Position numbers and translations under genes: made by a program | IMG/VR virus record: IMGVR_UViG_3300011336_000175 | Coordinates: 1-48,933 of that record | Direction: 5' to 3' (one strand) | Origin: a virus | Lineage: Duplodnaviria > Caudoviricetes | Length of the DNA stretch: 48,933 nt | The notes under the pieces: model-generated | Told to the model about the DNA's origin: nothing | Database searches by the model: none | The model's input: only the letters and a program-made list of their open reading frames with translations | In this document: one piece after another, positions 1 through 44,233 of the stretch | Position numbering within the stretch: position 1 is the stretch's first letter | Layout: each line of letters starts with the position of its first letter

Positions 1-517
1 CGTTTTCCAACGATGTTTCATTCAAGTCAGCAGCGGTAGATGGAGTGTTACTGTTAGTACCACCAGACACCAAGGGGTGAGCAGTAGAGCAAAGCACCAC
101 GCCGTCGCCGTATGTTGGGCCACCGCTAAAAGCGTTGTTCAACACATAAGCAGCTTTAACTTGCTTGGTGTAAGCCATACCACGGGCCAAAGCCTTGGTA
201 TAACGTGAAGACAGGCTGTCGTACAAGTTATCTTCCACAGCTTCCTCTGTGATGGAGAAGCCCATCGCAATGGTTTCGTGGACATAACGTGCAGTCCATG
301 CTTCCTGTGCATTGTCATAAGCGATGGCAGAACCCTCGTTTTTGACTGGTGCAGCAGAGAAACCTGACAGTTTTGTCTCTTCTTCAAAGCTACGCTCAGA
401 TGTTTCTGTTTCGTAGATCTCTTTGTGCTCTTCGCCGTATTTAGCATACTCTAAGCCAAACAAAGCATTCAAGCCGGGGAGCAACTCTTTAAGTAGCTGT
501 GCGCGTGAAATAGCCAT
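1..517 (-). CDS. Major capsid protein (3' truncated by window edge)
   Basis: Not in the ORF track. ATG at 517 with AAGGAG RBS; reads MAISRAQLLKELLPGLNALFGLEYAKYGEEHKEIYETETSERSFEEETKLSGF..., open to the window edge. Typical phage MCP N-terminus, downstream of portal and scaffold. Confidence 0.88.
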   Translation of the reverse strand, partial: MAISRAQLLKELLPGLNALFGLEYAKYGEEHKEIYETETSERSFEEETKLSGFSAAPVKNEGSAIAYDNAQEAWTARYVHETIAMGFSITEEAVEDNLYDSLSSRYTKALARGMAYTKQVKAAYVLNNAFSGGPTYGDGVVLCSTAHPLVSGGTNSNTPSTAADLNETSLEN

Positions 518-527
518 TTGTTACTCC

Positions 528-1142
528 TTAAACACCAGTGGTGTTGTTGTACTGCGCTGTGTTGATCTTTACGATGAACTCGTAATAGGTCGTAGCGGCA
601 GTTGTTGCAGGGCCAGTGGCTGTGTCAGGTACGACATCAATCACACGAATAGGCAATGTATTAGTGGTGTTGGCGGAAGAACCGTCAATACCGTAGTACG
701 AATCACCTGTAGTTGTAGAACCAACGTTAGCAACCAAAGCCACGTTAGAACCAACAATGCTACGAGCATAAGCCGTAGGAGTGGTGGAACCAGCGACAGT
801 AGCGCAAACACGGAACGCTGCACTAGGATCATCCACAACAAAAGCCAAAGCCATGTTTGTTGAAGTTGAAGTAGAAGCAGGGTAGTTCTGTGCGAACGTA
901 GGCTGACTCAAAGAGTTGATGTAAGAACAACCAACCAACACGCCAACGATCTTACCGGAATCGGTAGTATTCGCTGCAACGATGTAACCGCTTGTGTCCA
1001 CTTGCACGGTGTCACCGTTCAAGATTGCAGTAGCGTAGGAAGGTGCGATTGGGATTTGACGGATCGCTCCGGCGTAGGGTAGACCATCCAGTCGGTTGAC
1101 TGGCTTGAAACCATACGTCTTATCAATCGTGGGATATGCCAT
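528..1142 (-). CDS. Capsid-associated (decoration/cement-like) protein
   Basis: 204 aa beta-rich, Thr/Ala/Gly-rich ORF immediately upstream of MCP, GGAG RBS. Confidence 0.6.
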   Translation of the reverse strand: MAYPTIDKTYGFKPVNRLDGLPYAGAIRQIPIAPSYATAILNGDTVQVDTSGYIVAANTTDSGKIVGVLVGCSYINSLSQPTFAQNYPASTSTSTNMALAFVVDDPSAAFRVCATVAGSTTPTAYARSIVGSNVALVANVGSTTTGDSYYGIDGSSANTTNTLPIRVIDVVPDTATGPATTAATTYYEFIVKINTAQYNNTTGV

Positions 1143-2976: not shown

Positions 2977-3166
2977 CGTCATCATCCTTAATTTTTCTTA
3001 AAAGGTCATTCAACTCAAACTGCGCGGTTCGTAGACCCTTGATTACTCCGCACATTCCCTTGTAATCAGCGTAGTCTTTAGCTACGCCGTCACACAAAGA
3101 CCCAGTTACATCTTGAACCCGCTCATTAATTTTTTGGTTCAAAACTTCGAATATCTTCAATTCCAT
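2969..3166 (-). CDS. Hypothetical protein
   Basis: 65 aa helical ORF with GAGG RBS; occupies the usual position between portal and GroES-like genes. Confidence 0.65.
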   Translation of the reverse strand: MELKIFEVLNQKINERVQDVTGSLCDGVAKDYADYKGMCGVIKGLRTAQFELNDLLRKIKDDDDE

Positions 3167-3911
3167 GATGCACCTCTATTGGTTTAAAAGTAGTAATGTC
3201 GTAGTTGGCCGACTTACACCATACTCGTGCAAAGTTACAATCCATCCTTAATGGACACGCTTCGCACTTAGCATTCTTTGTACTAATGTTGTTTCCGTGG
3301 TTTCGGTATAAATACAACACTTTAGGTAATCGCGCCGCAGGAAACTTCTCAACAATTTGCATAAACAAATCGCCATCTGCACAGCCATTAGTACTAGCCA
3401 ACTTCTCGTTGTAACCTTGGATGTGCTCCATTACATCTGAGCGGTACATTCCAAAATGCCGCCACCCATGTTGATGTAATTTATTGGGATCAAATGTAGG
3501 ACTTGGGGAATAGTGCTCGACTTCACCCTTCTTACCTATCTGGGCAAAGTCTGAGTAAATGAACTTAACGTCTGGTAGCTGGTCAAAAGCCAGCATCATC
3601 TCTTCAATGGCATACCTTTCAAGCATGTCATCGCTGTCAAAATGAGCATAAAAGTCCCCTTTTGCAAGCCCAGAAAGCTTCAACATTGTGCTGTTATAGC
3701 CAATATTTACCCCATTTTTGTGGACTTTTATGCGTTTATCGCCCTTAGATAAGACTTCCGCTAGCTCCCAAGTACCATCATCAGACCCATCATCAAGAAT
3801 TATCAGTTCCCAATTCTTATAAGTCTGTTTTTTTGCGCTATCTATAGCGTTTTTGATGTAAGCCACGTTGTTATACGCAGCCATTAGTAGGGATACTAGC
3901 GGTTTAGTCAT
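3126..3911 (-). CDS. Glycosyltransferase family 2 (GT-A fold)
   Basis: PLVSLLMAAYN, QTYKNWELIILDDGSDDGT, DxD motif FDSDD, LYLYRNH. Confidence 0.93.
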   Translation of the reverse strand: MTKPLVSLLMAAYNNVAYIKNAIDSAKKQTYKNWELIILDDGSDDGTWELAEVLSKGDKRIKVHKNGVNIGYNSTMLKLSGLAKGDFYAHFDSDDMLERYAIEEMMLAFDQLPDVKFIYSDFAQIGKKGEVEHYSPSPTFDPNKLHQHGWRHFGMYRSDVMEHIQGYNEKLASTNGCADGDLFMQIVEKFPAARLPKVLYLYRNHGNNISTKNAKCEACPLRMDCNFARVWCKSANYDITTFKPIEVHHGIEDIRSFEPKN

Positions 3912-14063: not shown

Positions 14064-14876
14064 TGCAACTAGGCTTAAACCTAACTTCAGTAAGCCGATG
14101 CGTTGGTGAGTATCGTTTGCATCCTCACCCACCACATCACTCATCCAATACTTCCATCCGATCTCCTTCGCGACCCTCTCACCCGTCCCGCTTTTATCGT
14201 TATCCGCAACGATGAGTCCATCCGGTAAGCCCTCCGCTACCTTCTTCATATTTCCCGCGCTGAAGCAAACATGAATCGTGTACCTCCGGCTCATCTTTCT
14301 AAGTGCCGCTTGGATAGACAGACCCGTAGCGTATCCCTCACACAGAATATGAACTCCCTTGTTGTCAATGACTAGCTCCGCGTTACTGGTGCGCTGACCA
14401 TACAGAAACTTCTTTGAGCCATCCTCTTCTATAAGCTGACATCCGACAAGGTGTCCATCCACCCGCATGGGTACGACAAGAGTACGCTTACCTTCATGCC
14501 CCCAAATCCTGTCCTCCGAGTCAACGAATCCCTTCCTGTTCAAGTACTCATGCTTACCCAGAACTGTCTCGCCCATAATGAATGCCGCCCGCTTGACTGC
14601 ATCCGCTTGGTCTGCCCTGCGCTTTGCTTCTAATGCCGCTAAGTCCTTCGCAATCTTGACCCGATCAATCTTGACTGGTGTATCCGGTTGCCACAAAGAT
14701 ACTTCTGTATCGGTTGCGTGATTTTGCAAAAAAGCATGGTCAACCATGTATTTCAATGCGCCATTTCTTTTGTGAGGATGATCCTCTGTTGGGTATCTCT
14801 TCCAAACACCTACTGGTGGTAGGGTGTCAATGATGAATCCCAATGCCCGCGCATGAGCTAAAAGTGAATGGCTCAT
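14046..14876 (-). CDS. DNA primase, TOPRIM domain
   Basis: HEYLNRKG, LVVPM, GCQLI..DGSKKFLYG, LCEGYATGLS, CFSAGN, VADND, DAND. Confidence 0.9.
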   Translation of the reverse strand: MSHSLLAHARALGFIIDTLPPVGVWKRYPTEDHPHKRNGALKYMVDHAFLQNHATDTEVSLWQPDTPVKIDRVKIAKDLAALEAKRRADQADAVKRAAFIMGETVLGKHEYLNRKGFVDSEDRIWGHEGKRTLVVPMRVDGHLVGCQLIEEDGSKKFLYGQRTSNAELVIDNKGVHILCEGYATGLSIQAALRKMSRRYTIHVCFSAGNMKKVAEGLPDGLIVADNDKSGTGERVAKEIGWKYWMSDVVGEDANDTHQRIGLLKLGLSLVASLKLV

Positions 14877-15514
14877 AGTAAATAACCTCTCTCACGCATG
14901 AAATCTACAGGATGTTTTGCATTCTTCTGAAGATTACATTTTGATTTCAACAACTGAACATTGTCATCCGTATTCGTTCCGCCCATAGACAGCGGAATAA
15001 TATGATCCAAATGAAAATCATCATTGAGTTTATTAAGACAACAAACACATAAACCATTTTGCCTTTGGAATAACACTTCAACAATGTTGGGAGATAGTTT
15101 CCCAGTCCTTTGCAAACCTCTTCTTGATTGGTTAAGAGCTCTAATTTTTTGTAAATTAGATTTTCTGTAAATGGAAACAGAAAGCTTTACTTTCTCTTTG
15201 TGTTTTTCGTAATAGGCACGGCTATATTTTCTTACTACATCCGTGGGTCTATAAGATTTAATTTTTTCTTTATTGTTTGCCCTCCACTCGACAAGATACT
15301 CAGCCTGTCTTTGTTTTTGAGCCTCTGTTCTAGCAGCCCTTAGATCTCTTTCATAAGCACGAATCGCCTCTGGGTTTTTTGCTCTAGCATCTCTCGCAGC
15401 TTTAGCTTTACAACTTTTACAGACAGATTGATGAGAAGGCTTTCTGTTTTTTTGATTCTTTTGTGCAAAAAAATCAATACTTTTTATTTCATTACAAACT
15501 TTGCAAGTTTTCAT
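14873..15514 (-). CDS. HNH homing-type endonuclease
   Basis: N-terminal CKVC/CKSC; C-terminal CVCC...HLDHIIPLSMGGTNTDDNVQLL...CN; visibly AT-rich; start MKTCK at 15514 with GGAG RBS. Confidence 0.9.
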   Translation of the reverse strand: MKTCKVCNEIKSIDFFAQKNQKNRKPSHQSVCKSCKAKAARDARAKNPEAIRAYERDLRAARTEAQKQRQAEYLVEWRANNKEKIKSYRPTDVVRKYSRAYYEKHKEKVKLSVSIYRKSNLQKIRALNQSRRGLQRTGKLSPNIVEVLFQRQNGLCVCCLNKLNDDFHLDHIIPLSMGGTNTDDNVQLLKSKCNLQKNAKHPVDFMRERGYLL

Positions 15515-15576
15515 AAAAGCTCCAAATGTTGAAGTCATTATAGAGAATCCATGATCTCGCGCAACAATGAATTCCA

Positions 15577-17052
15577 TTACCGCATCCTCCGAATCTGCTT
15601 GATGTATCTATTGATTCCATCCTGCACGAACTTAGTTACCTTTGCATCCGGCATGACTGGTGTATCAGCCAACATCCGAGGCCACACCCCGAACTTTTCT
15701 TTGTACACATTCGCAGCTCTGCCCTTCGACCAACCCTGATATTTGATGTACCAGTTAAGCATCGACCACCATACTTGCTTATCGTCACGGGTCATAGTGC
15801 CCGTAAGCTCCTGCATCTCACCCGCTACGGCTTCTATCTTGGTCTTACGCTCCCTAATATGACCGCAGGACTTGCAAAGATCAGAGTTCAGAGGCCATAA
15901 AGCACCACACGCAGGGCATTTAGCCGCCTCTTTCTCACGCTCTGTCGGTTCTTTCTTAGCCTTCTCCGCCCCGTCATCTAGTTCACTAACACCACCACCG
16001 AACACCTCGTCCCAGTCCTCACGGAATCTGAGATAGTTACCTGAGTGGTCAAGCCATACGGCAAACTCTTTCCCCTCATGACCGCGCATGACACGACCCA
16101 TCTGCTGAATGTGAGACGACAAAGACTTGGAGAACGGACGAGCCGATACTCCGATCATCACATCGGACACATCGAAACCCTTGGTCAGAATGTCCGTAGC
16201 AATCAGGCCATTGATCTCTGTGTCCGGCTTGCTGAACTCCTCAATCACATCCTTTTTATACTGATCGTCATCCCGATAACTAATGTTGATAAAGTTATAG
16301 CCACGCTCACCAAACTTCTGCGCCAAGTCAGCACCATGAGCTACACCGGAACAGAAAACAATCGTTTTAGCAGGCTTGCCAAAGATTTCATGGGTCTTTT
16401 TCTCCCACTCCACCACAATATCACCAGTGATCTGCATTCCTCGTTTAGTAGTTTCAGTAGGAGACCACTCGCCCGCCACCTTCTTAGCCCCCTCCATGTT
16501 TATTTCTTTGGCAATAAATACTTTTAGCGGGACAAGCACCTTGTCATCCACCAACTCCCGTGTCGTGACTGTCGAGACCACATCCTCATAGACCTTGGCT
16601 AACCCCTTGGTAAATGGCGTAGCACTCAAGCCAATCACCCGAATGTCAGGGTTGTTCTTAATGAACTCGACTGTTGCCGCCCGTGTCTGGTGGGCTTCGT
16701 CAATGATGAGTAGGTTTAGATTGGGAAACTCCTCCCGTCTTTCCAATGTCTGAGCCGAGCAGATTTGTATCTTCTCCGATGGGAGATTACGCCAGTGACC
16801 TGACTGTAAAACTCCATGCTCAATCTTGTATTTGTCTAGCCGTTGACTGGTCTGATCGCACAGAATGATCCTGTCCAAGACCATTGCCGCCCGATTACCC
16901 TTCGACTTAGTAGCTTCAAGCAAAGCAATAGCCATCTCTGTTTTGCCTGCTCCTGTCGGGGCATAAAGCATCAAGCTTTTCTTGCCCGATGCAAACCCCT
17001 CACGCAATGCCTTCAGCGTAGCCTCTTGATAAGGCCGTAGTTCTAATCCCAT
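15577..17052 (-). CDS. Superfamily II DEAH helicase with C-terminal Zn ribbon
   Basis: LRPYQ, APTGAGKT, IIDEAH, GLSATP, QQMGRVMR, CPAC...CKSC; start MGLEL at 17052. Confidence 0.93.
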   Translation of the reverse strand: MGLELRPYQEATLKALREGFASGKKSLMLYAPTGAGKTEMAIALLEATKSKGNRAAMVLDRIILCDQTSQRLDKYKIEHGVLQSGHWRNLPSEKIQICSAQTLERREEFPNLNLLIIDEAHQTRAATVEFIKNNPDIRVIGLSATPFTKGLAKVYEDVVSTVTTRELVDDKVLVPLKVFIAKEINMEGAKKVAGEWSPTETTKRGMQITGDIVVEWEKKTHEIFGKPAKTIVFCSGVAHGADLAQKFGERGYNFINISYRDDDQYKKDVIEEFSKPDTEINGLIATDILTKGFDVSDVMIGVSARPFSKSLSSHIQQMGRVMRGHEGKEFAVWLDHSGNYLRFREDWDEVFGGGVSELDDGAEKAKKEPTEREKEAAKCPACGALWPLNSDLCKSCGHIRERKTKIEAVAGEMQELTGTMTRDDKQVWWSMLNWYIKYQGWSKGRAANVYKEKFGVWPRMLADTPVMPDAKVTKFVQDGINRYIKQIRRMR

Positions 17053-20568: not shown

Positions 20569-20922
20569 TTACCTACGCCAGTCTGTTTGGTATTTATTGC
20601 CCTTGGCTTTGTTGCAAGGGCCACACAGGGGTTGAAGGTTGTTGATGTCAAGAGCAAGCTCAGGAAAGTACTTGCGTGGTTTGATGTGATCCATGTTGAT
20701 AGGGAACTTGCGACTGTTCTCTCTTCCACACTTGCAACACACTAGCCCGTACCTCTCGGCAGCTTCTCGGCGAAGCTTCCTCCACGCCTCTGAGTATAAG
20801 AACGGGTCTGCCGTCTTACGCAGTTCGTCTGCTACCTCGTTATCCGTCATAGACGAAGCCCGTACTGCCCAAGCTAATTTCATCGCCTTGCGTTTCAACT
20901 TATTGGAAAGGTTCATTGACAT
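20569..20922 (-). CDS. HNH endonuclease (small)
   Basis: FLYSEAWRKLR...CCKCG...DHIKPR...LQPLCGPCNKAKG. Confidence 0.92.
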   Translation of the reverse strand: MSMNLSNKLKRKAMKLAWAVRASSMTDNEVADELRKTADPFLYSEAWRKLRREAAERYGLVCCKCGRENSRKFPINMDHIKPRKYFPELALDINNLQPLCGPCNKAKGNKYQTDWRR

Positions 20923-22003: not shown

Positions 22004-22032
22004 TTGCAAAATTAAAATGTAGCAGGTAGAAT
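22004..22032 (+). promoter_or_regulatory. sigma70-type promoter TTGCAA-N17-TAGAAT upstream of the GGYNN array operon
   Basis: -35 at 22004-22009, -10 at 22027-22032; overlapped by TACCTGNTRCA boxes. Confidence 0.75.
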
Positions 22033-22056
22033 CTATACCATGCTGACTGGTTTAAT

Positions 22057-22397
22057 GGAGCGGTTCGGTTGGGCATGGCAGAGCGAAGACTGGCTCGGTT
22101 GGGTCTGGCTAGGCAAGGAACTGGAGACAGTCGATAGGGCATTCATTGAGTGCCACTTCGAGTGTTAGGCACGGTCGGGCAAGTCTCGGCACGGTGAGGA
22201 GAGGCGGGGATAGGCAGGGCACGGCACGGAAAGGTGCGGCATGGAGCTAGAAATAGTCGATAGGGTATTGGCAACAGTACCACTTCGAGTGTTAGGCAGG
22301 GATCGGTACGGTGAGGCAGGGTCTGGTTCGGCAAGGGCTAATGTAGCGGCTATGAAATTGGAAACAGTTTCATGGTCGATACAAAGTGTGTATCAAT
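22057..22397 (+). ncRNA. Array of three putative guide-RNA units: (GGYNN)n tracts plus conserved hairpin linkers
   Basis: Tracts at 22057-22121 (13 pentamers), 22168-22247 (16) and 22295-22339 (9); 35/38 pentamers start with GG; linkers 22122-22167 and 22248-22294 are homologous with compensatory changes. Confidence 0.85.
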
Positions 22398-22410
22398 CAA
22401 AGGAAACAAA

Positions 22411-22980
22411 ATGAAATCTATTAAAGTAAAACTCTCAGGCTCATCTGCTTTACTCATGCACTCTGATCGCTTTGCGAACCCGTTAGACCCACTGACCAAG
22501 GCTCACAAAGAACTGACAGGCAAGCGCAAGAAAACTGACGATGACCATATCGCCATTGCTAGAAGTGAATTTATTGGTGGCTGCTATTGGAATGAAGACA
22601 CTGGCTTCTTTATTCCTGCACAAAACCTAGACTCATGCCTGATCGCGGCGGCTAAGCTTCAGAAGCTTGGCGTTAAATTCAAGCAAGGCGTTCAGGTATT
22701 GGAAGACGAGCTACCCATCGACGGCTTTAAGTCCGTCACTCCAGAGAAGCTTTGGGAAAACCCAAAGAACGTGGATGCCCGTGGCGTTAAGGTAGGCATG
22801 GCCAAGATCATGCGCTACCGCCCCATCTTTCGCAACTGGTCACTGTCTGCCACGGTGATGGTGAATGAAGATGTAGTTAACCTCAATGAAGTTAAGAAAG
22901 CTTTGGTTGACGCTGGCAATTTGATTGGCTTGGGTGATTACCGTCCCCGCTTTGGCCGTTTCAATGTGGAGTTTGCATGA
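22411..22980 (+). CDS. Stand-alone RAMP/Cas7-like protein, putative RNA-guided effector
   Basis: 189 aa from ATG 22411 (AAGGA RBS); N-terminal strand IKVKLSGSSALLMH, IPAQNLDSCL..AA helix, RYRPIF..WSL, C-terminal Gly-rich loop AGNLIGLGDYRPRFGRF. Confidence 0.7.
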   Translation: MKSIKVKLSGSSALLMHSDRFANPLDPLTKAHKELTGKRKKTDDDHIAIARSEFIGGCYWNEDTGFFIPAQNLDSCLIAAAKLQKLGVKFKQGVQVLEDELPIDGFKSVTPEKLWENPKNVDARGVKVGMAKIMRYRPIFRNWSLSATVMVNEDVVNLNEVKKALVDAGNLIGLGDYRPRFGRFNVEFA

Positions 22981-23459
22981 GCGACAATCCAAAACTATTC
23001 CCCGCTTGGAAGCAGGCAGTTAAAACTTTATTGGACAGCGGCCTTACATACGGAAGCGTACTCAAGCGCAGTTACATTTCCGAATTGTGTGATGTGCCAA
23101 AGCCAGTAGACATTGACGATGTTCGCAGGTATGACCTTGAAGTGCTTCGCTGTATTACAGAGATTAAAGACATTCTGCTGACAGCCCACTGCATGCTAAT
23201 GGTCAGTGACCATGCAGGCAACTACATCATCATTGAGCCTGAGTCACAAACTCAACACGCCGTTGATGCAGGTGTTAAAGCAATCGGTCGAGAGATGAAG
23301 CGCATGGCTATGGGCGTGAGCTTTACCAAGACTGAACTACTCACAGACGAAGGCCGTAAGAAAAACGCAGATGCTCAGGCAAAGATCTCAAAGCTGGCCG
23401 GAATGCTAAGCCTTGAGAAGCGTGAGCTTCAGCGTATAGCAGACAGGAGTCAGCCATGA
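22977..23459 (+). CDS. Hypothetical protein coupled to the RAMP-like gene
   Basis: 160 aa, ATGA overlaps on both sides. Confidence 0.75.
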   Translation: MSDNPKLFPAWKQAVKTLLDSGLTYGSVLKRSYISELCDVPKPVDIDDVRRYDLEVLRCITEIKDILLTAHCMLMVSDHAGNYIIIEPESQTQHAVDAGVKAIGREMKRMAMGVSFTKTELLTDEGRKKNADAQAKISKLAGMLSLEKRELQRIADRSQP

Positions 23460-25616: not shown

Positions 25617-26219
25617 ATGAAATGTTACGTTTGCGGTGATGAAGCTATTAAGCGTCATGGTAGATCGAATCTTTGTGCTCAGCACCGACGTTTTTTGCAG
25701 ATGCAAAGAACAGCTAAGCACGATAAAAAATATGTTCCATCTATTTATGAACTACAGAAACTTGTTCCTGTAGATATGAGGTGTGGTGACTGTGGGATTG
25801 AGATGAATTGGGTTGATGGAAATAACAGACCATCAAACGCAGTTCTTCAGCACTATCGAGATGGGACTCTTGGAATAACGTGCATGTCTTGCAATACAAA
25901 ACATGGACTTATGCCGGGAGATTCATATCGAGATATTCCAAATGGTCACAAACTTTGCACCAATTGCAAGACTACTAAGTCATTAGATTTATTTGGTAAA
26001 CGTTCTGCAAAGGAAGGCGATTACCCAAAAACTAAATGCAAACAATGCGAATTAGATGCACAAAAAGCATGGCGTCAAAAAAATCCAGAAAGGTATAAAC
26101 AATTGAACAAACGACATAACGACATAAAGAAATCTAATCCCGATAAGTATAGGGAACTTGACAGAAAGTATTACCACTTAAAAAAGGAGAGGAATGGAAA
26201 AGACTCACCCACACTTTGA
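25617..26219 (+). CDS. His-Me (Endo VII-like) Zn-binding putative homing endonuclease
   Basis: CGDC...QH...GITCMSCN core, extra CYVC and CTNC/CKQC ribbons, basic helical tail; visibly AT-rich. Confidence 0.6.
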   Translation: MKCYVCGDEAIKRHGRSNLCAQHRRFLQMQRTAKHDKKYVPSIYELQKLVPVDMRCGDCGIEMNWVDGNNRPSNAVLQHYRDGTLGITCMSCNTKHGLMPGDSYRDIPNGHKLCTNCKTTKSLDLFGKRSAKEGDYPKTKCKQCELDAQKAWRQKNPERYKQLNKRHNDIKKSNPDKYRELDRKYYHLKKERNGKDSPTL

Positions 26220-26921: not shown

Positions 26922-27096
26922 AGGTGTTAAGAGTCTTGTTCAGCTAGAGCCTATTTCTCTGGACAAGATGAACATGCTTGACTTCTTCGCAGCCTTTGTC
27001 CTCATGGGCTTGGCAGGCGGAGAGGACATGCAAGAGAACGCTCGCATGGCTTACGACCAAGCGGAGGAGATGATGCTTGAAAGGATGGAGAGATGA
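26902..27096 (+). CDS. Hypothetical protein
   Basis: LDFFAAF...AYDQAEEMM motif. Confidence 0.65.
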   Translation: MARKKPEGVKSLVQLEPISLDKMNMLDFFAAFVLMGLAGGEDMQENARMAYDQAEEMMLERMER

Positions 27097-28346
27097 ATGT
27101 AGCCATTGTTCAGTTTGATAATCGCAATGATGAGCAGTTAGGCTGGATGCGTAGGCTAGTTGACATCAATGTGCGTTATGCAAAGAAGCATGGTTACGAA
27201 CACTTCTTCCATCGTAAGATTCCTTTTGACGTTCCTCCGTATTGGGCTAAGCCTTGGGTGATCTTTGATGCACTAGAGCGTGGCTTTGACATGGTTCTAT
27301 GGCTAGATTCTGATGCGGTCGTGCATGATTTTGATAGAACCATAGAGAGTTTCTTTGAAGGTGATGAGCTTTTTATCTACACACCTGACTGTTCTATCTG
27401 GTCTGAGCCATTCAATGCTGGCGCTTTCTTCGTTAAGAAAGAAGCCAAGCACATCATTGAAGAGTGGATGACTCTGTACGACAGCACCATGTGGAACAAA
27501 GAAAATGAACAGTGGCACTGCCTCGGTTCATGGGCTGGCCCTGCTTATGAGCAAGGATCTTTTACCAAACATCTCATCCCAAAGTACGAAAAGAACTTAA
27601 AGAAAATTGATTGGAGGATTCTTCAGAACCCTTATCCGATTGAAGAAACATTTGTCATTCACTTTGCCGGACAGTTCAGGGTGGTTATACAAATGTATCT
27701 GCTTCCCAAAATGGAAGAGGAGCAAAGGCTGCTAGCCAATAGAAATAGCAAAGAAAGCATGGAAGATTTATTCCGATTGATGTATCACCACAACCTTTGG
27801 TCAAACAATGAAAGCAAATCTGGCCCCGGTTCTACGTTATTCCAAACAAAAAATATCATTGAAGAGTTACCTCTTCTCTTAAAGAAATATGAAATTAAAT
27901 CAATCCTTGACATACCTTGTGGTGACTTTCATTGGATGAAAAAGGTTGATTTAACTGGCATTGATTACATTGGAGCAGACATTGTTCCTGAGATCATTGC
28001 AGACAACAAAGCCAAAGCATCTCATAAATTTGAAGTTCTGGATCTTGTTCACGACGATCTGCCTAAAGTGGATCTTATTCTGTGCCGAGATTTAATGTTT
28101 CATCTGCCCTTTGAATCCATTTTTAAAGCGTTGGATAACATATCTAAATCCGGCAGTAAGTACTTATTGGCTACCAATCACACATGGAAACGTGATAGTA
28201 ATCAAGACATCGTAGTTGGAGAATGGCGACGATTGAACATGCGGGAAGAGCCGCTTAACCTACCACCCTTCATTGACTTGATCGTTGAAGGGAACAGCGA
28301 AGGCGGTCAGGAAGACCGATGCCTTTGCCTTTGGAAACTTAACTAA
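27093..28346 (+). CDS. Fusion of a GT34-like glycosyltransferase and a class I SAM methyltransferase
   Basis: N-terminal YAKKHGY, WAKP, LWLDSDA, FNAGAFF, YEQG, IHFAG; C-terminal SGPGS, ILDIPCGD, YIGADIV, DLILCRD..FHL. Confidence 0.85.
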   Translation: MNVAIVQFDNRNDEQLGWMRRLVDINVRYAKKHGYEHFFHRKIPFDVPPYWAKPWVIFDALERGFDMVLWLDSDAVVHDFDRTIESFFEGDELFIYTPDCSIWSEPFNAGAFFVKKEAKHIIEEWMTLYDSTMWNKENEQWHCLGSWAGPAYEQGSFTKHLIPKYEKNLKKIDWRILQNPYPIEETFVIHFAGQFRVVIQMYLLPKMEEEQRLLANRNSKESMEDLFRLMYHHNLWSNNESKSGPGSTLFQTKNIIEELPLLLKKYEIKSILDIPCGDFHWMKKVDLTGIDYIGADIVPEIIADNKAKASHKFEVLDLVHDDLPKVDLILCRDLMFHLPFESIFKALDNISKSGSKYLLATNHTWKRDSNQDIVVGEWRRLNMREEPLNLPPFIDLIVEGNSEGGQEDRCLCLWKLN

Positions 28347-42734: not shown

Positions 42735-43616
42735 TTAAGGCAAAGCTGAAACAAATGATAGTGTAGCCACAACAGAAGCTGTTGAGGGTTTAGTGGGTAA
42801 AGGCGTAGCAACGTAGTTCGGAATGGTTACGTTTACACCATCTGTAGACCACCATACCTCTACGTAATCACCTGCGTTCATGGATAGAAAATAGTTCCAG
42901 CCTTTGATGTCGTGCGATGGGTTATTGACGGCCTTGCGCTGTGGCATACCTACTTTACCCGTAGAGCCAATGATGTCCGTACCGTTTTGCTTTAACCAAA
43001 GATAGACATCTTGCGGTGTGTTGTCTTGGTTTTCAAGCTGTACACTGAACTGCATATTGTAAATTCCGGCATTTGCCACCGTCATTCGGGTCGTGCCCGT
43101 CAGCGTGACTTCATTTGAAAAATCAGTTGTATTAAAAAATAAAGCATAGGCAGTGGAGGGCGCTAGGGCAATTTGTTTACCCTCTACAGCATCCCCAGAT
43201 GTATGCGCCGCCGCAGTCGTTGACAAAGCCCCCCGAACGCAACCCGTAAATGATGTGGGCGTTGTACCCGTGTACGTTATAGTTTCGTTACCAATATAAA
43301 AGGCTTTAGGCGCAGCAACCGAAGCGGTGGGAAACGTAGCAGTAGATACCACGGGTATTGTAGTGACTGCATTGGTAATGTTAGCCGTCAAAGATGTTTG
43401 AGAGAAACAAGAAAACGCTCCGTAGGGTAATCGTATCCCTGCCCCTCCAGAAGATGTTTGCAACTGAGCCGTCAAAGCATCTAGCCTGTTGAAATATAGG
43501 CGAAGCACATTTAATAACTGGTCAAAATACTGGCGGTCGTATTCAAGCGTGGCAAGTGGCAAGTTAGGCGCGGCTACCTTGTTTAACTCAAACTCAGACG
43601 TAATGATGTAGCTCAT
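42735..43616 (-). CDS. Tail-associated protein
   Basis: APNLP...LRLYFNRLD N-terminus; beta-rich C-terminus (AGIYNMQFSVQ, AGDYVEVWW). Confidence 0.65.
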   Translation of the reverse strand: MSYIITSEFELNKVAAPNLPLATLEYDRQYFDQLLNVLRLYFNRLDALTAQLQTSSGGAGIRLPYGAFSCFSQTSLTANITNAVTTIPVVSTATFPTASVAAPKAFYIGNETITYTGTTPTSFTGCVRGALSTTAAAHTSGDAVEGKQIALAPSTAYALFFNTTDFSNEVTLTGTTRMTVANAGIYNMQFSVQLENQDNTPQDVYLWLKQNGTDIIGSTGKVGMPQRKAVNNPSHDIKGWNYFLSMNAGDYVEVWWSTDGVNVTIPNYVATPLPTKPSTASVVATLSFVSALP

Positions 43617-44233
43617 ACCGCGCCCCAGTGTAGGCGTTCAAGTTCTTTGCGGGCGGCGGCGGCCTCTTCTACAGTAGCGCACAACTTTGAGTAGTATGAT
43701 TTTTTGCCGACTGTTATTTTGGCTAAAAATTTACGGCCAACTACTGATACACCTATAAACCCAGTAGTGCTATTTACGCGCAAACGTGTATTTCTGTTTT
43801 GAGTTTGTACGCCCGCCCAACGACAGTTTTTGGGCGAGTAATTGCCGTACACATCAATACGATCTAGCGTTTCATCGCCCTCTGGTTCGCCCATATCGGC
43901 AACAAAATTAGCGTATTCCAACCATTCCGCGCAGACAGACACGCCTTTCCCGCCATACCGAGGGTAATCTTTGTCTGTTGAAATTGTGCACCGTCTAACC
44001 ATTGCTCGCCATGTATTGTAAGAACCTTTACCAGAACCACCATGTTTAAGATTTGGGACTACACAGCCGCATGAGCTTGTATTGCCCGTCACCAAACTTC
44101 CAGAAACCACCACAGTTTCATTACCGCATTCACACCGACAACGCCACAATACCTTTTTTAATTTGTCGCGTCCAGCTTGTTTAATCACTGTCAACTTACC
44201 AAAAACTTGCCCTGTCCTGTCTACGAGTTTCAT
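43613..44233 (-). CDS. HNH-AP2-type homing endonuclease
   Basis: TGQVFGKLTV, WRCRCECG, SCGC, YGGKGVSVC..W, LDRID..GNYSPKNCRW, C-terminal AP2-like GFIGV...EEAAAAR. Confidence 0.88.
   Translation of the reverse strand: MKLVDRTGQVFGKLTVIKQAGRDKLKKVLWRCRCECGNETVVVSGSLVTGNTSSCGCVVPNLKHGGSGKGSYNTWRAMVRRCTISTDKDYPRYGGKGVSVCAEWLEYANFVADMGEPEGDETLDRIDVYGNYSPKNCRWAGVQTQNRNTRLRVNSTTGFIGVSVVGRKFLAKITVGKKSYYSKLCATVEEAAAARKELERLHWGAV

Follow-up and report, generated by a model that had tools for sequence, protein, structure and literature searches.

The virus genome analyzed here, a complete virus record of 48,933 bases that is referred to as the window, almost certainly harbors a locus of the type II VIPR kind, which was published in 2026. 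Three tracts of GG-initiated pentamers with 3′ tails precede a homolog of the SUSP1 Vipr protein and a partner gene of the vap1 family, bearing out the resemblance to VIPR-type phage systems that the initial annotation had pointed to. It is very probable, on the combined sequence analyses, that the cassette makes guide RNAs on which Vipr polymerizes, and that DNA of rival mobile elements is bound and silenced by means of a one-base-skip code. One of the three guides, guide 2, likely shuts down such rival elements, as suggested by its matches to their sequences.

Genomic context and architecture of the cassette

The window encodes, among others, a terminase, portal, endolysin, primase, and helicase, and represents a podophage-like freshwater genome. 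Metagenome runs containing the phage carry the labels riverine or lake metagenome, or a coded organism name. The nearest Vipr genes in genome bins (70-78%) come from short contigs with the labels Cyanobium, Rhodoferax, Betaproteobacteria, and Pseudomonadota. The cassette comprises the following features:

22004..22032, + strand: promoter-like site TTGCAA-17 nt-TAGAAT, 9/12 consensus
22057..22121, + strand: guide tract 1 with its 13 pentamers, lacking a secure target
22120..22166, + strand: tail 1, composed of a short hairpin that shares bases with the final repeat and a long hairpin after it; fold z-score -4.2
22168..22207, + strand: module A of guide tract 2 (units 1-8), whose NN bases spell the active-site motif of large serine recombinases
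22203..22242, + strand: module B of guide tract 2 (units 8-15), tail-adjoining; matches, in antisense, the opening codons of a gene in the exonuclease-SSB-DNA polymerase operon of another phage
22246..22293, + strand: tail 2, belonging to the family of tail 1; fold z-score -4.25 (alignment A2)
22295..22339, + strand: guide tract 3, 9 pentamers; no target found
22337..22394, + strand: tail 3, three predicted hairpins; fold z-score -6.3
22411..22980, + strand: vipr, 189-aa RAMP-family guide-binding protein by homology to SUSP1 Vipr
22977..23459, + strand: accessory gene of the vap1 family encoding 160 aa; overlaps the stop codon of vipr; PHROG 5926

The three tracts consist of 38 pentamers (13+16+9), of which 35 start with GG and 29 carry C or T at the third position; the tract positions and counts of the initial annotation proved to be exact. 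No further 5-periodic GG tract is present on either strand of the 48.9 kb. In their best run of 10 consecutive pentamers, all 10 start with GG, whereas 200 shuffled versions of the window reached 7 at most. The final pentamer of every tract doubles as part of the first hairpin in its tail.

The promoter-like site at 22004..22032 is the likely driver of the cassette and of its downstream genes. To call it a good sigma70 promoter, as had been done, is an overstatement given its 9/12 score and the number of such sites in the window, which is at chance level (5 found vs. 3.6 +/- 1.6 expected). Two contigs of the lake run X13 join position 22032 or 22033 directly to 23456, with ~29 different letters in between, and these cassette-less relatives retain the promoter-like site. 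As the stretch from 22032 to 23456 is skipped as a whole, the cassette presents itself as a gain-and-loss module with marked limits. Its position is between the promoter-like site and a PD-(D/E)XK nuclease gene. A strain in run X15 contains three additional pentamers in tract 1 and an additional guide starting with module A. Within the RNA runs X15-X17, the genes are covered as contigs, with X16 and X17 lacking most of the array; contigs of this kind carry no strand, end, or level information and are hence silent on transcription.

Elsewhere in the phage, four HNH or endonuclease VII-like genes are encoded (14873-15577, 20569-20922, 25617-26219, and 43613-44233), together with a 417-aa protein (27093-28346) showing a C-terminal methyltransferase match and an N-terminal half without assignment. 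A GtrB-like glycosyltransferase gene and a GroES-like gene are located at 3126-3911 and 2569-2985.

Vipr and its partner gene

A PDB search with the 189-aa protein retrieved SUSP1 Vipr (36PP) over residues 1-188 (E 5.1e-47) as the sole match up to E 10, and a Pfam search returned zero family matches. The protein belongs to PHROG 4652, like the protein of Felixounavirus allfine, to which it is 41% identical; the nearest named relatives are those of LESphi2 (49%) and Medea1 (59%), and 677 homologs were obtained at E <= 0.001. According to 10.64898/2026.04.26.720927, an alanine change at K33, K82, R138, or D177 abolished SUSP1 silencing, and all four residues are retained in the window Vipr. At the 14 named SUSP1 contact positions, eight residues are identical (H17, K33, R39, K82, G87, R138, D177, and R179), W178 is a Y as in P. 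fulva, and five are altered (E71Q, M72N, K88V, C173I, and an L at position 175). On the basis of this homology, a RAMP-type protein including the thumb and the G-loop is predicted for the window Vipr. Of the stand-alone RAMP/Cas7-like protein postulated in the initial annotation, the RAMP assignment thus holds (E 5e-47 to SUSP1 Vipr), whereas the stand-alone status does not, since the gene at 22977-23459 belongs to the system.

This second gene falls into PHROG 5926, as do the genes following vipr in allfine, Medea1, and LESphi2, the one of allfine being regarded as vap1 by virtue of its position. The encoded protein shares 21% identity with the allfine protein (E 2e-8); searches yielded zero families in Pfam and unnamed viral clusters only in the Atlas.

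The expectation that homologs of the protein are flanked by pentamer tracts was confirmed at 52/52 vipr-homolog loci (49 from IMG/VR and three from GenBank, several of them near-duplicates), with a vap1 homolog being detectable at 49/52. Among vipr loci from genome bins, tracts are present at 3/6, and in the remaining three the gene lies <150 bases from the contig end. Loci L046, L047, and L050 carry arrays solely downstream of the vipr homolog and gave no tblastn match to the window Vap1; in L050, the gene next to vipr is still of PHROG 5926. L030 contains an additional vap1 homolog (280-735, minus strand; 74% to that of the window) ~2.3 kb upstream of vipr, possibly representing a second or inverted VIPR unit.

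Structured tails behind the tracts

The spacers following the tracts are predicted to be conserved structured tails, in line with their fold z-scores. Within a two-hairpin model of 21 related tails, the 14 pairs are 100% paired and both-side changes occur at 6/14 pairs, counts to be read in the light of tail selection by a pattern fixing some columns and of a relatedness among tails that inflates covariation. In an alternative helix, the tail 3′ end pairs with bases of the first hairpin; this helix is 97% paired and includes two pairs changed on both sides. As the nested hairpins of the tail consensus and this covarying helix use common bases, a switch or a tertiary contact is possible, and a pseudoknot-like contact would be permitted. 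The type of tail 3 constitutes the terminal tail in most close relatives, and similar tails precede vipr in related loci.

Module A of guide 2 matches the active-site motif of serine recombinases

Scans of public collections for targets applied the published one-base skip between NN pairs (bioRxiv 10.64898/2026.04.26.720920), NN being the last two bases of each pentamer; self-target scans covered skips 0-3. The 16 NN bases of module A yielded at least 120 matches in IMG/VR. With their order shuffled, five matches were obtained, and other patterns of 16 bases gave 5, 6, and 14. The GGY/NN code with gapped targets in competing elements, as initially proposed, thereby gained clear support. Among the matches listed, YTRKST(D/E)(D/E)G is encoded in frame by 120/120 (115 distinct contexts), and at every one of these sites the skipped base is the variable codon position 3. 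The serine within this motif is presumably the recombinase nucleophile.

Since the match count alone reflects a common motif, tests outside the scanned pattern are the stronger ones. Longer guides of relatives carry TA before module A as well as CT and then GA after it, and at the module A sites listed TA precedes in 120/120, CT follows in 97/120, and GA in 114/120. Searches by tblastn found the recombinase at all 120 target loci listed and a DUF2924 gene at 113/120; three target ORFs were scanned and encode Resolvase + Recombinase proteins, each behind a DUF2924 gene. Across 11 module A versions in 19 loci, NN positions depart in 0/170 and scaffold positions in 32/255 cases, a constancy favored by the selection of these rows by NN likeness with two mismatched units allowed. 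In genomes with a Vipr homolog, a module A site was found in 0/5.

Further guides of the clade point to the same and to related genes. A guide of L022 and L026 matches with 16/16 on TIVVYKID in the same recombinase gene, which by eye is the strand targeted by SUSP1 vrRNA4 (residues 79-84 of the recombinase in 2026.10.15.759431). A third clade guide, absent from the window, reads HG.R..FRDWAA in 29/42 stretches (17 distinct); for five further units, located beyond the scanned pattern, agreement is seen in 24-29 of these 29. We take this latter motif to be of the tyrosine-integrase type.

Module B of guide 2 and the replication operon of another freshwater phage

The remaining part of guide 2 does not continue the recombinase match: units 9-15 agree with the 120 recombinase sites listed in just 0-4/14 bases. 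Module B alone gave 14 matches in IMG/VR without convergence. Using the motif common to module B and a stand-alone guide of L037, 18 metagenome matches were obtained, seven of which converge on one gene, the site being antisense to codons 1-16 of a 118-aa gene (PHROG 13625) that has exonuclease and SSB genes on one side and a gene for DNA polymerase on the other. The L037 guide agrees with 22/22 at L267, 21/22 at five sites, and 19/22 at L271, compared with 18-20 at the 11 non-converging matches. For units 8-15 of the window, the corresponding values are 15/16 at L271, 12-13/16 at the six other converging sites, and 12-14 at the non-converging ones. All seven sites belong to one phage clade (80-100% identical) and hence represent a single target family, whose assignment is, by sequence agreement, well supported for the L037 guide and moderately supported for the window guide. 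Other guides reached no more than 14/16 on the 1 kb flanks of this target phage.

Guide 2 as a predicted composite

Tract 2 consists of module A and module B joined at a common GG unit, and the same fusion occurs in L001 and L013. Over its whole length, guide 2 agrees in 16-20/30 NN at the recombinase sites listed and in 18/30 at L271; the working cut-off for a whole-guide match in the VIPR papers is >=80% of NN, which each half alone passes. As the two halves match two different targets, guide 2 looks like two guides fused. Joining the NN strings for scanning, as had been suggested, was accordingly productive with a one-base skip for the halves of guide 2 but not for the full-length string of unit 2, which is divided between two targets. 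By eye, modules that also occur separately are joined in a comparable way at L011:-412, L002:-174, and L013:-400, and in combination with the X15 strain variants these joins indicate that the array is reshuffled in pentamer steps.

In terms of function, we regard it as close to an even question whether the locus is a working VIPR whose guide 2 uses module B only, module A being the leftover of a deletion that removed an inter-guide tail. Assembly of the SUSP1 filament begins at the tail end and proceeds 3′ to 5′ (10.64898/2026.04.26.720927), which would render module A distal and perhaps a relic. Consistent with an origin as a separate guide, module A stands alone, adjoining a tail, in L010, L012, L014, L016, L018, L025, and L033-L035, and in the X15 strain it is joined to a different 3′ part. 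This account has to contend with the occurrence of the fusion in three genomes (window, L001, and L013) with differing scaffolds and intact module A NN, although three are too few for a test, and with SUSP1 vrRNA4, for which a six-unit footprint suffices according to 2026.10.15.759431.

Only tentatively do we propose that guide 2 is bispecific, acting on recombinase elements as well as on the replication operon of a rival phage. Similarly speculative is the broader idea that recombination between GGY scaffolds yields composite guides whose halves silence different elements, with guide 2 being bispecific and the Vipr of this clade accepting GGA. If true, this would open a route to guide diversification without a spacer-acquisition gene at the locus. 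Fused guides are unmentioned in the text of 10.64898/2026.04.26.720920, and "chimer" occurs 0 times in its supplement PDF and in 2026.10.15.759431.

GGA units in the scaffold

Within 103 guides of the close clade, GGA accounts for 208/998 GG units, compared with 12/260 in distant loci and 0/39 in allfine. The window itself has 5/32 among the GG units preceding the terminal ones, and GGA units are also present inside target-matching modules. The Y3 pocket of SUSP1 is said to exclude GGA (10.64898/2026.04.26.720927), and the third position of the present clade appears to be looser, i.e., GGH. The pocket residues Q71/N72 were considered as the cause of GGA usage and rejected, as L032 and L036 carry them yet show 0/45 and 0/65 GGA. 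Because non-canonical scaffolds were reported before (10.64898/2026.04.26.720920 and 2026.10.21.760802), GGA is to be seen as a variant detail.

Guides 1 and 3 and the integrity of the system

For guide 1, an exact 16-base scan of IMG/VR resulted in five matches, i.e., background, and a scan of 301 genomes of the G001 family allowing <=3 mismatches of 20 in six matches vs. 10 for the control. Searches of related records (0/50) and of 214 loci gave zero matches, and a motif common to L011 and L037 that was tried for guide 1 gave one unrelated match. Units 2-11 agree with 20/20 at L201 ~970-1005 (G306:C1:2968-2996), a GC-rich virus record, the match spanning a likely ribosome site and the start of an HTH_3 repressor-like gene. 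This match may be due to chance, since ~0.02-0.05 of the 20/20 type are expected per pattern from the 16-base background, several patterns were tried, and the sister guides of guide 1 do not fit the site. Over its whole length, guide 1 reaches 21/24 at one doubtful site. The scan with guide 3 returned six unrelated matches, again at background level. Self-targets, of which none had been noticed by eye before, did not emerge in the window with skips 0-3 either, the best scores being within the range of 100 shuffles each.

Additional conserved guide families are present in related loci, at L016 -702, L035 -367, and L033 -276 and at L015 -420, L021 -453, and L027 -387 (from the vipr start). As far as we can judge, these families resemble a helix-turn-helix segment (antisense) and a start-proximal MRGRKP segment.

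A decaying or decoy VIPR, in which the protein is intact and silencing has been lost through scrambling of the guides by recombination, could explain why guides 1 and 3 are without a secure target, why guide 1 is common to relatives in its 5′ units only, and why relatives without the cassette occur. We nevertheless consider it improbable: the two genes and every tail are intact, real sites are matched by each module of guide 2, 49 IMG/VR relatives retain arrays, and missing targets are to be expected from exact-match scans. That the tracts are a microsatellite or a protein-binding DNA repeat unrelated to the adjoining gene is suggested by their repeat character alone and can hardly be upheld, given that NN rather than scaffold is conserved, the NN strings read protein motifs in frame, the tails covary as RNA, and array and gene are associated at every one of the 52 loci.

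Proposed mode of action

For the preferred reading as a type II VIPR, the guide RNAs would each consist of tract plus tail, derived from a three-guide array, with Vipr polymerizing on them. One Vipr protomer would occupy each pentamer, DNA would be bound as an R-loop triplex, and repression would proceed without cutting and with the assistance of Vap1. Transcription, the protomer per pentamer, the triplex, the cut-free repression, and the help by Vap1 are inferred from the papers on SUSP1 and P. fulva. By blocking the large serine recombinases that DUF2924-recombinase elements encode, module A would also block the excision of these elements, and integrated recombinase elements would likely stay where they are. 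Module B would block the replication operon of a competing freshwater phage, which would thereby be damped during infection.

Comparison with known systems

As the system and its code are published, the locus represents an example rather than a discovery. It adds a freshwater clade with guides predicted to act against active-site codons of serine and tyrosine recombinases, and would carry the SUSP1-satellite result over to other hosts. It is furthermore suited to ask whether long guides are fusions with two targets and whether GGA is tolerated.

The closest reference is the type II VIPR of Escherichia phage SUSP1 (bioRxiv 10.64898/2026.04.26.720920, 10.64898/2026.04.26.720927, and 2026.10.15.759431; PDB 36PP), the first of these sources comprising a survey of 667 systems. 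Both loci share vipr with a gene of the vap1 family, tracts that comprise 9-16 GGY/NN units and are followed by 3′ tails, a one-base skip on the wobble position, the lack of a self-target, and a large recombinase gene as predicted target. They differ in protein sequence (~41% identity, measured to the allfine relative), in guide arrangement (three upstream in the window; one upstream and three downstream in SUSP1), in the tails (predicted hairpins vs. a pseudoknot), and in GGA usage (208/998 in the clade of the window vs. 0/39 in the SUSP1 relative allfine). Unlike in SUSP1, guide 2 of the window comprises two modules with two predicted targets.

The type II VIPR of a Pseudomonas fulva prophage (10.64898/2026.04.26.720920) has the same locus order, i.e., vrRNA1-3, vipr, and vap1. 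Its guides are aimed mostly at lysis-lysogeny regulators of prophages, in contrast to those of the window. Its G-loop residues D175/Y176 and thumb residue R136 correspond to D176/Y177/R137 of the window Vipr.

With Class 1 CRISPR-Cas systems and their RAMP filaments of Cas7, Cas5, and Cas6, the locus has in common a RAMP protein predicted to polymerize on guide RNA. It is distinguished from them by the lack of a repeat-spacer array and a cas operon, the neighbors of vipr being phage genes and an Rfam search of the window giving zero matches, and by a pairing with the target that is gapped instead of contiguous.
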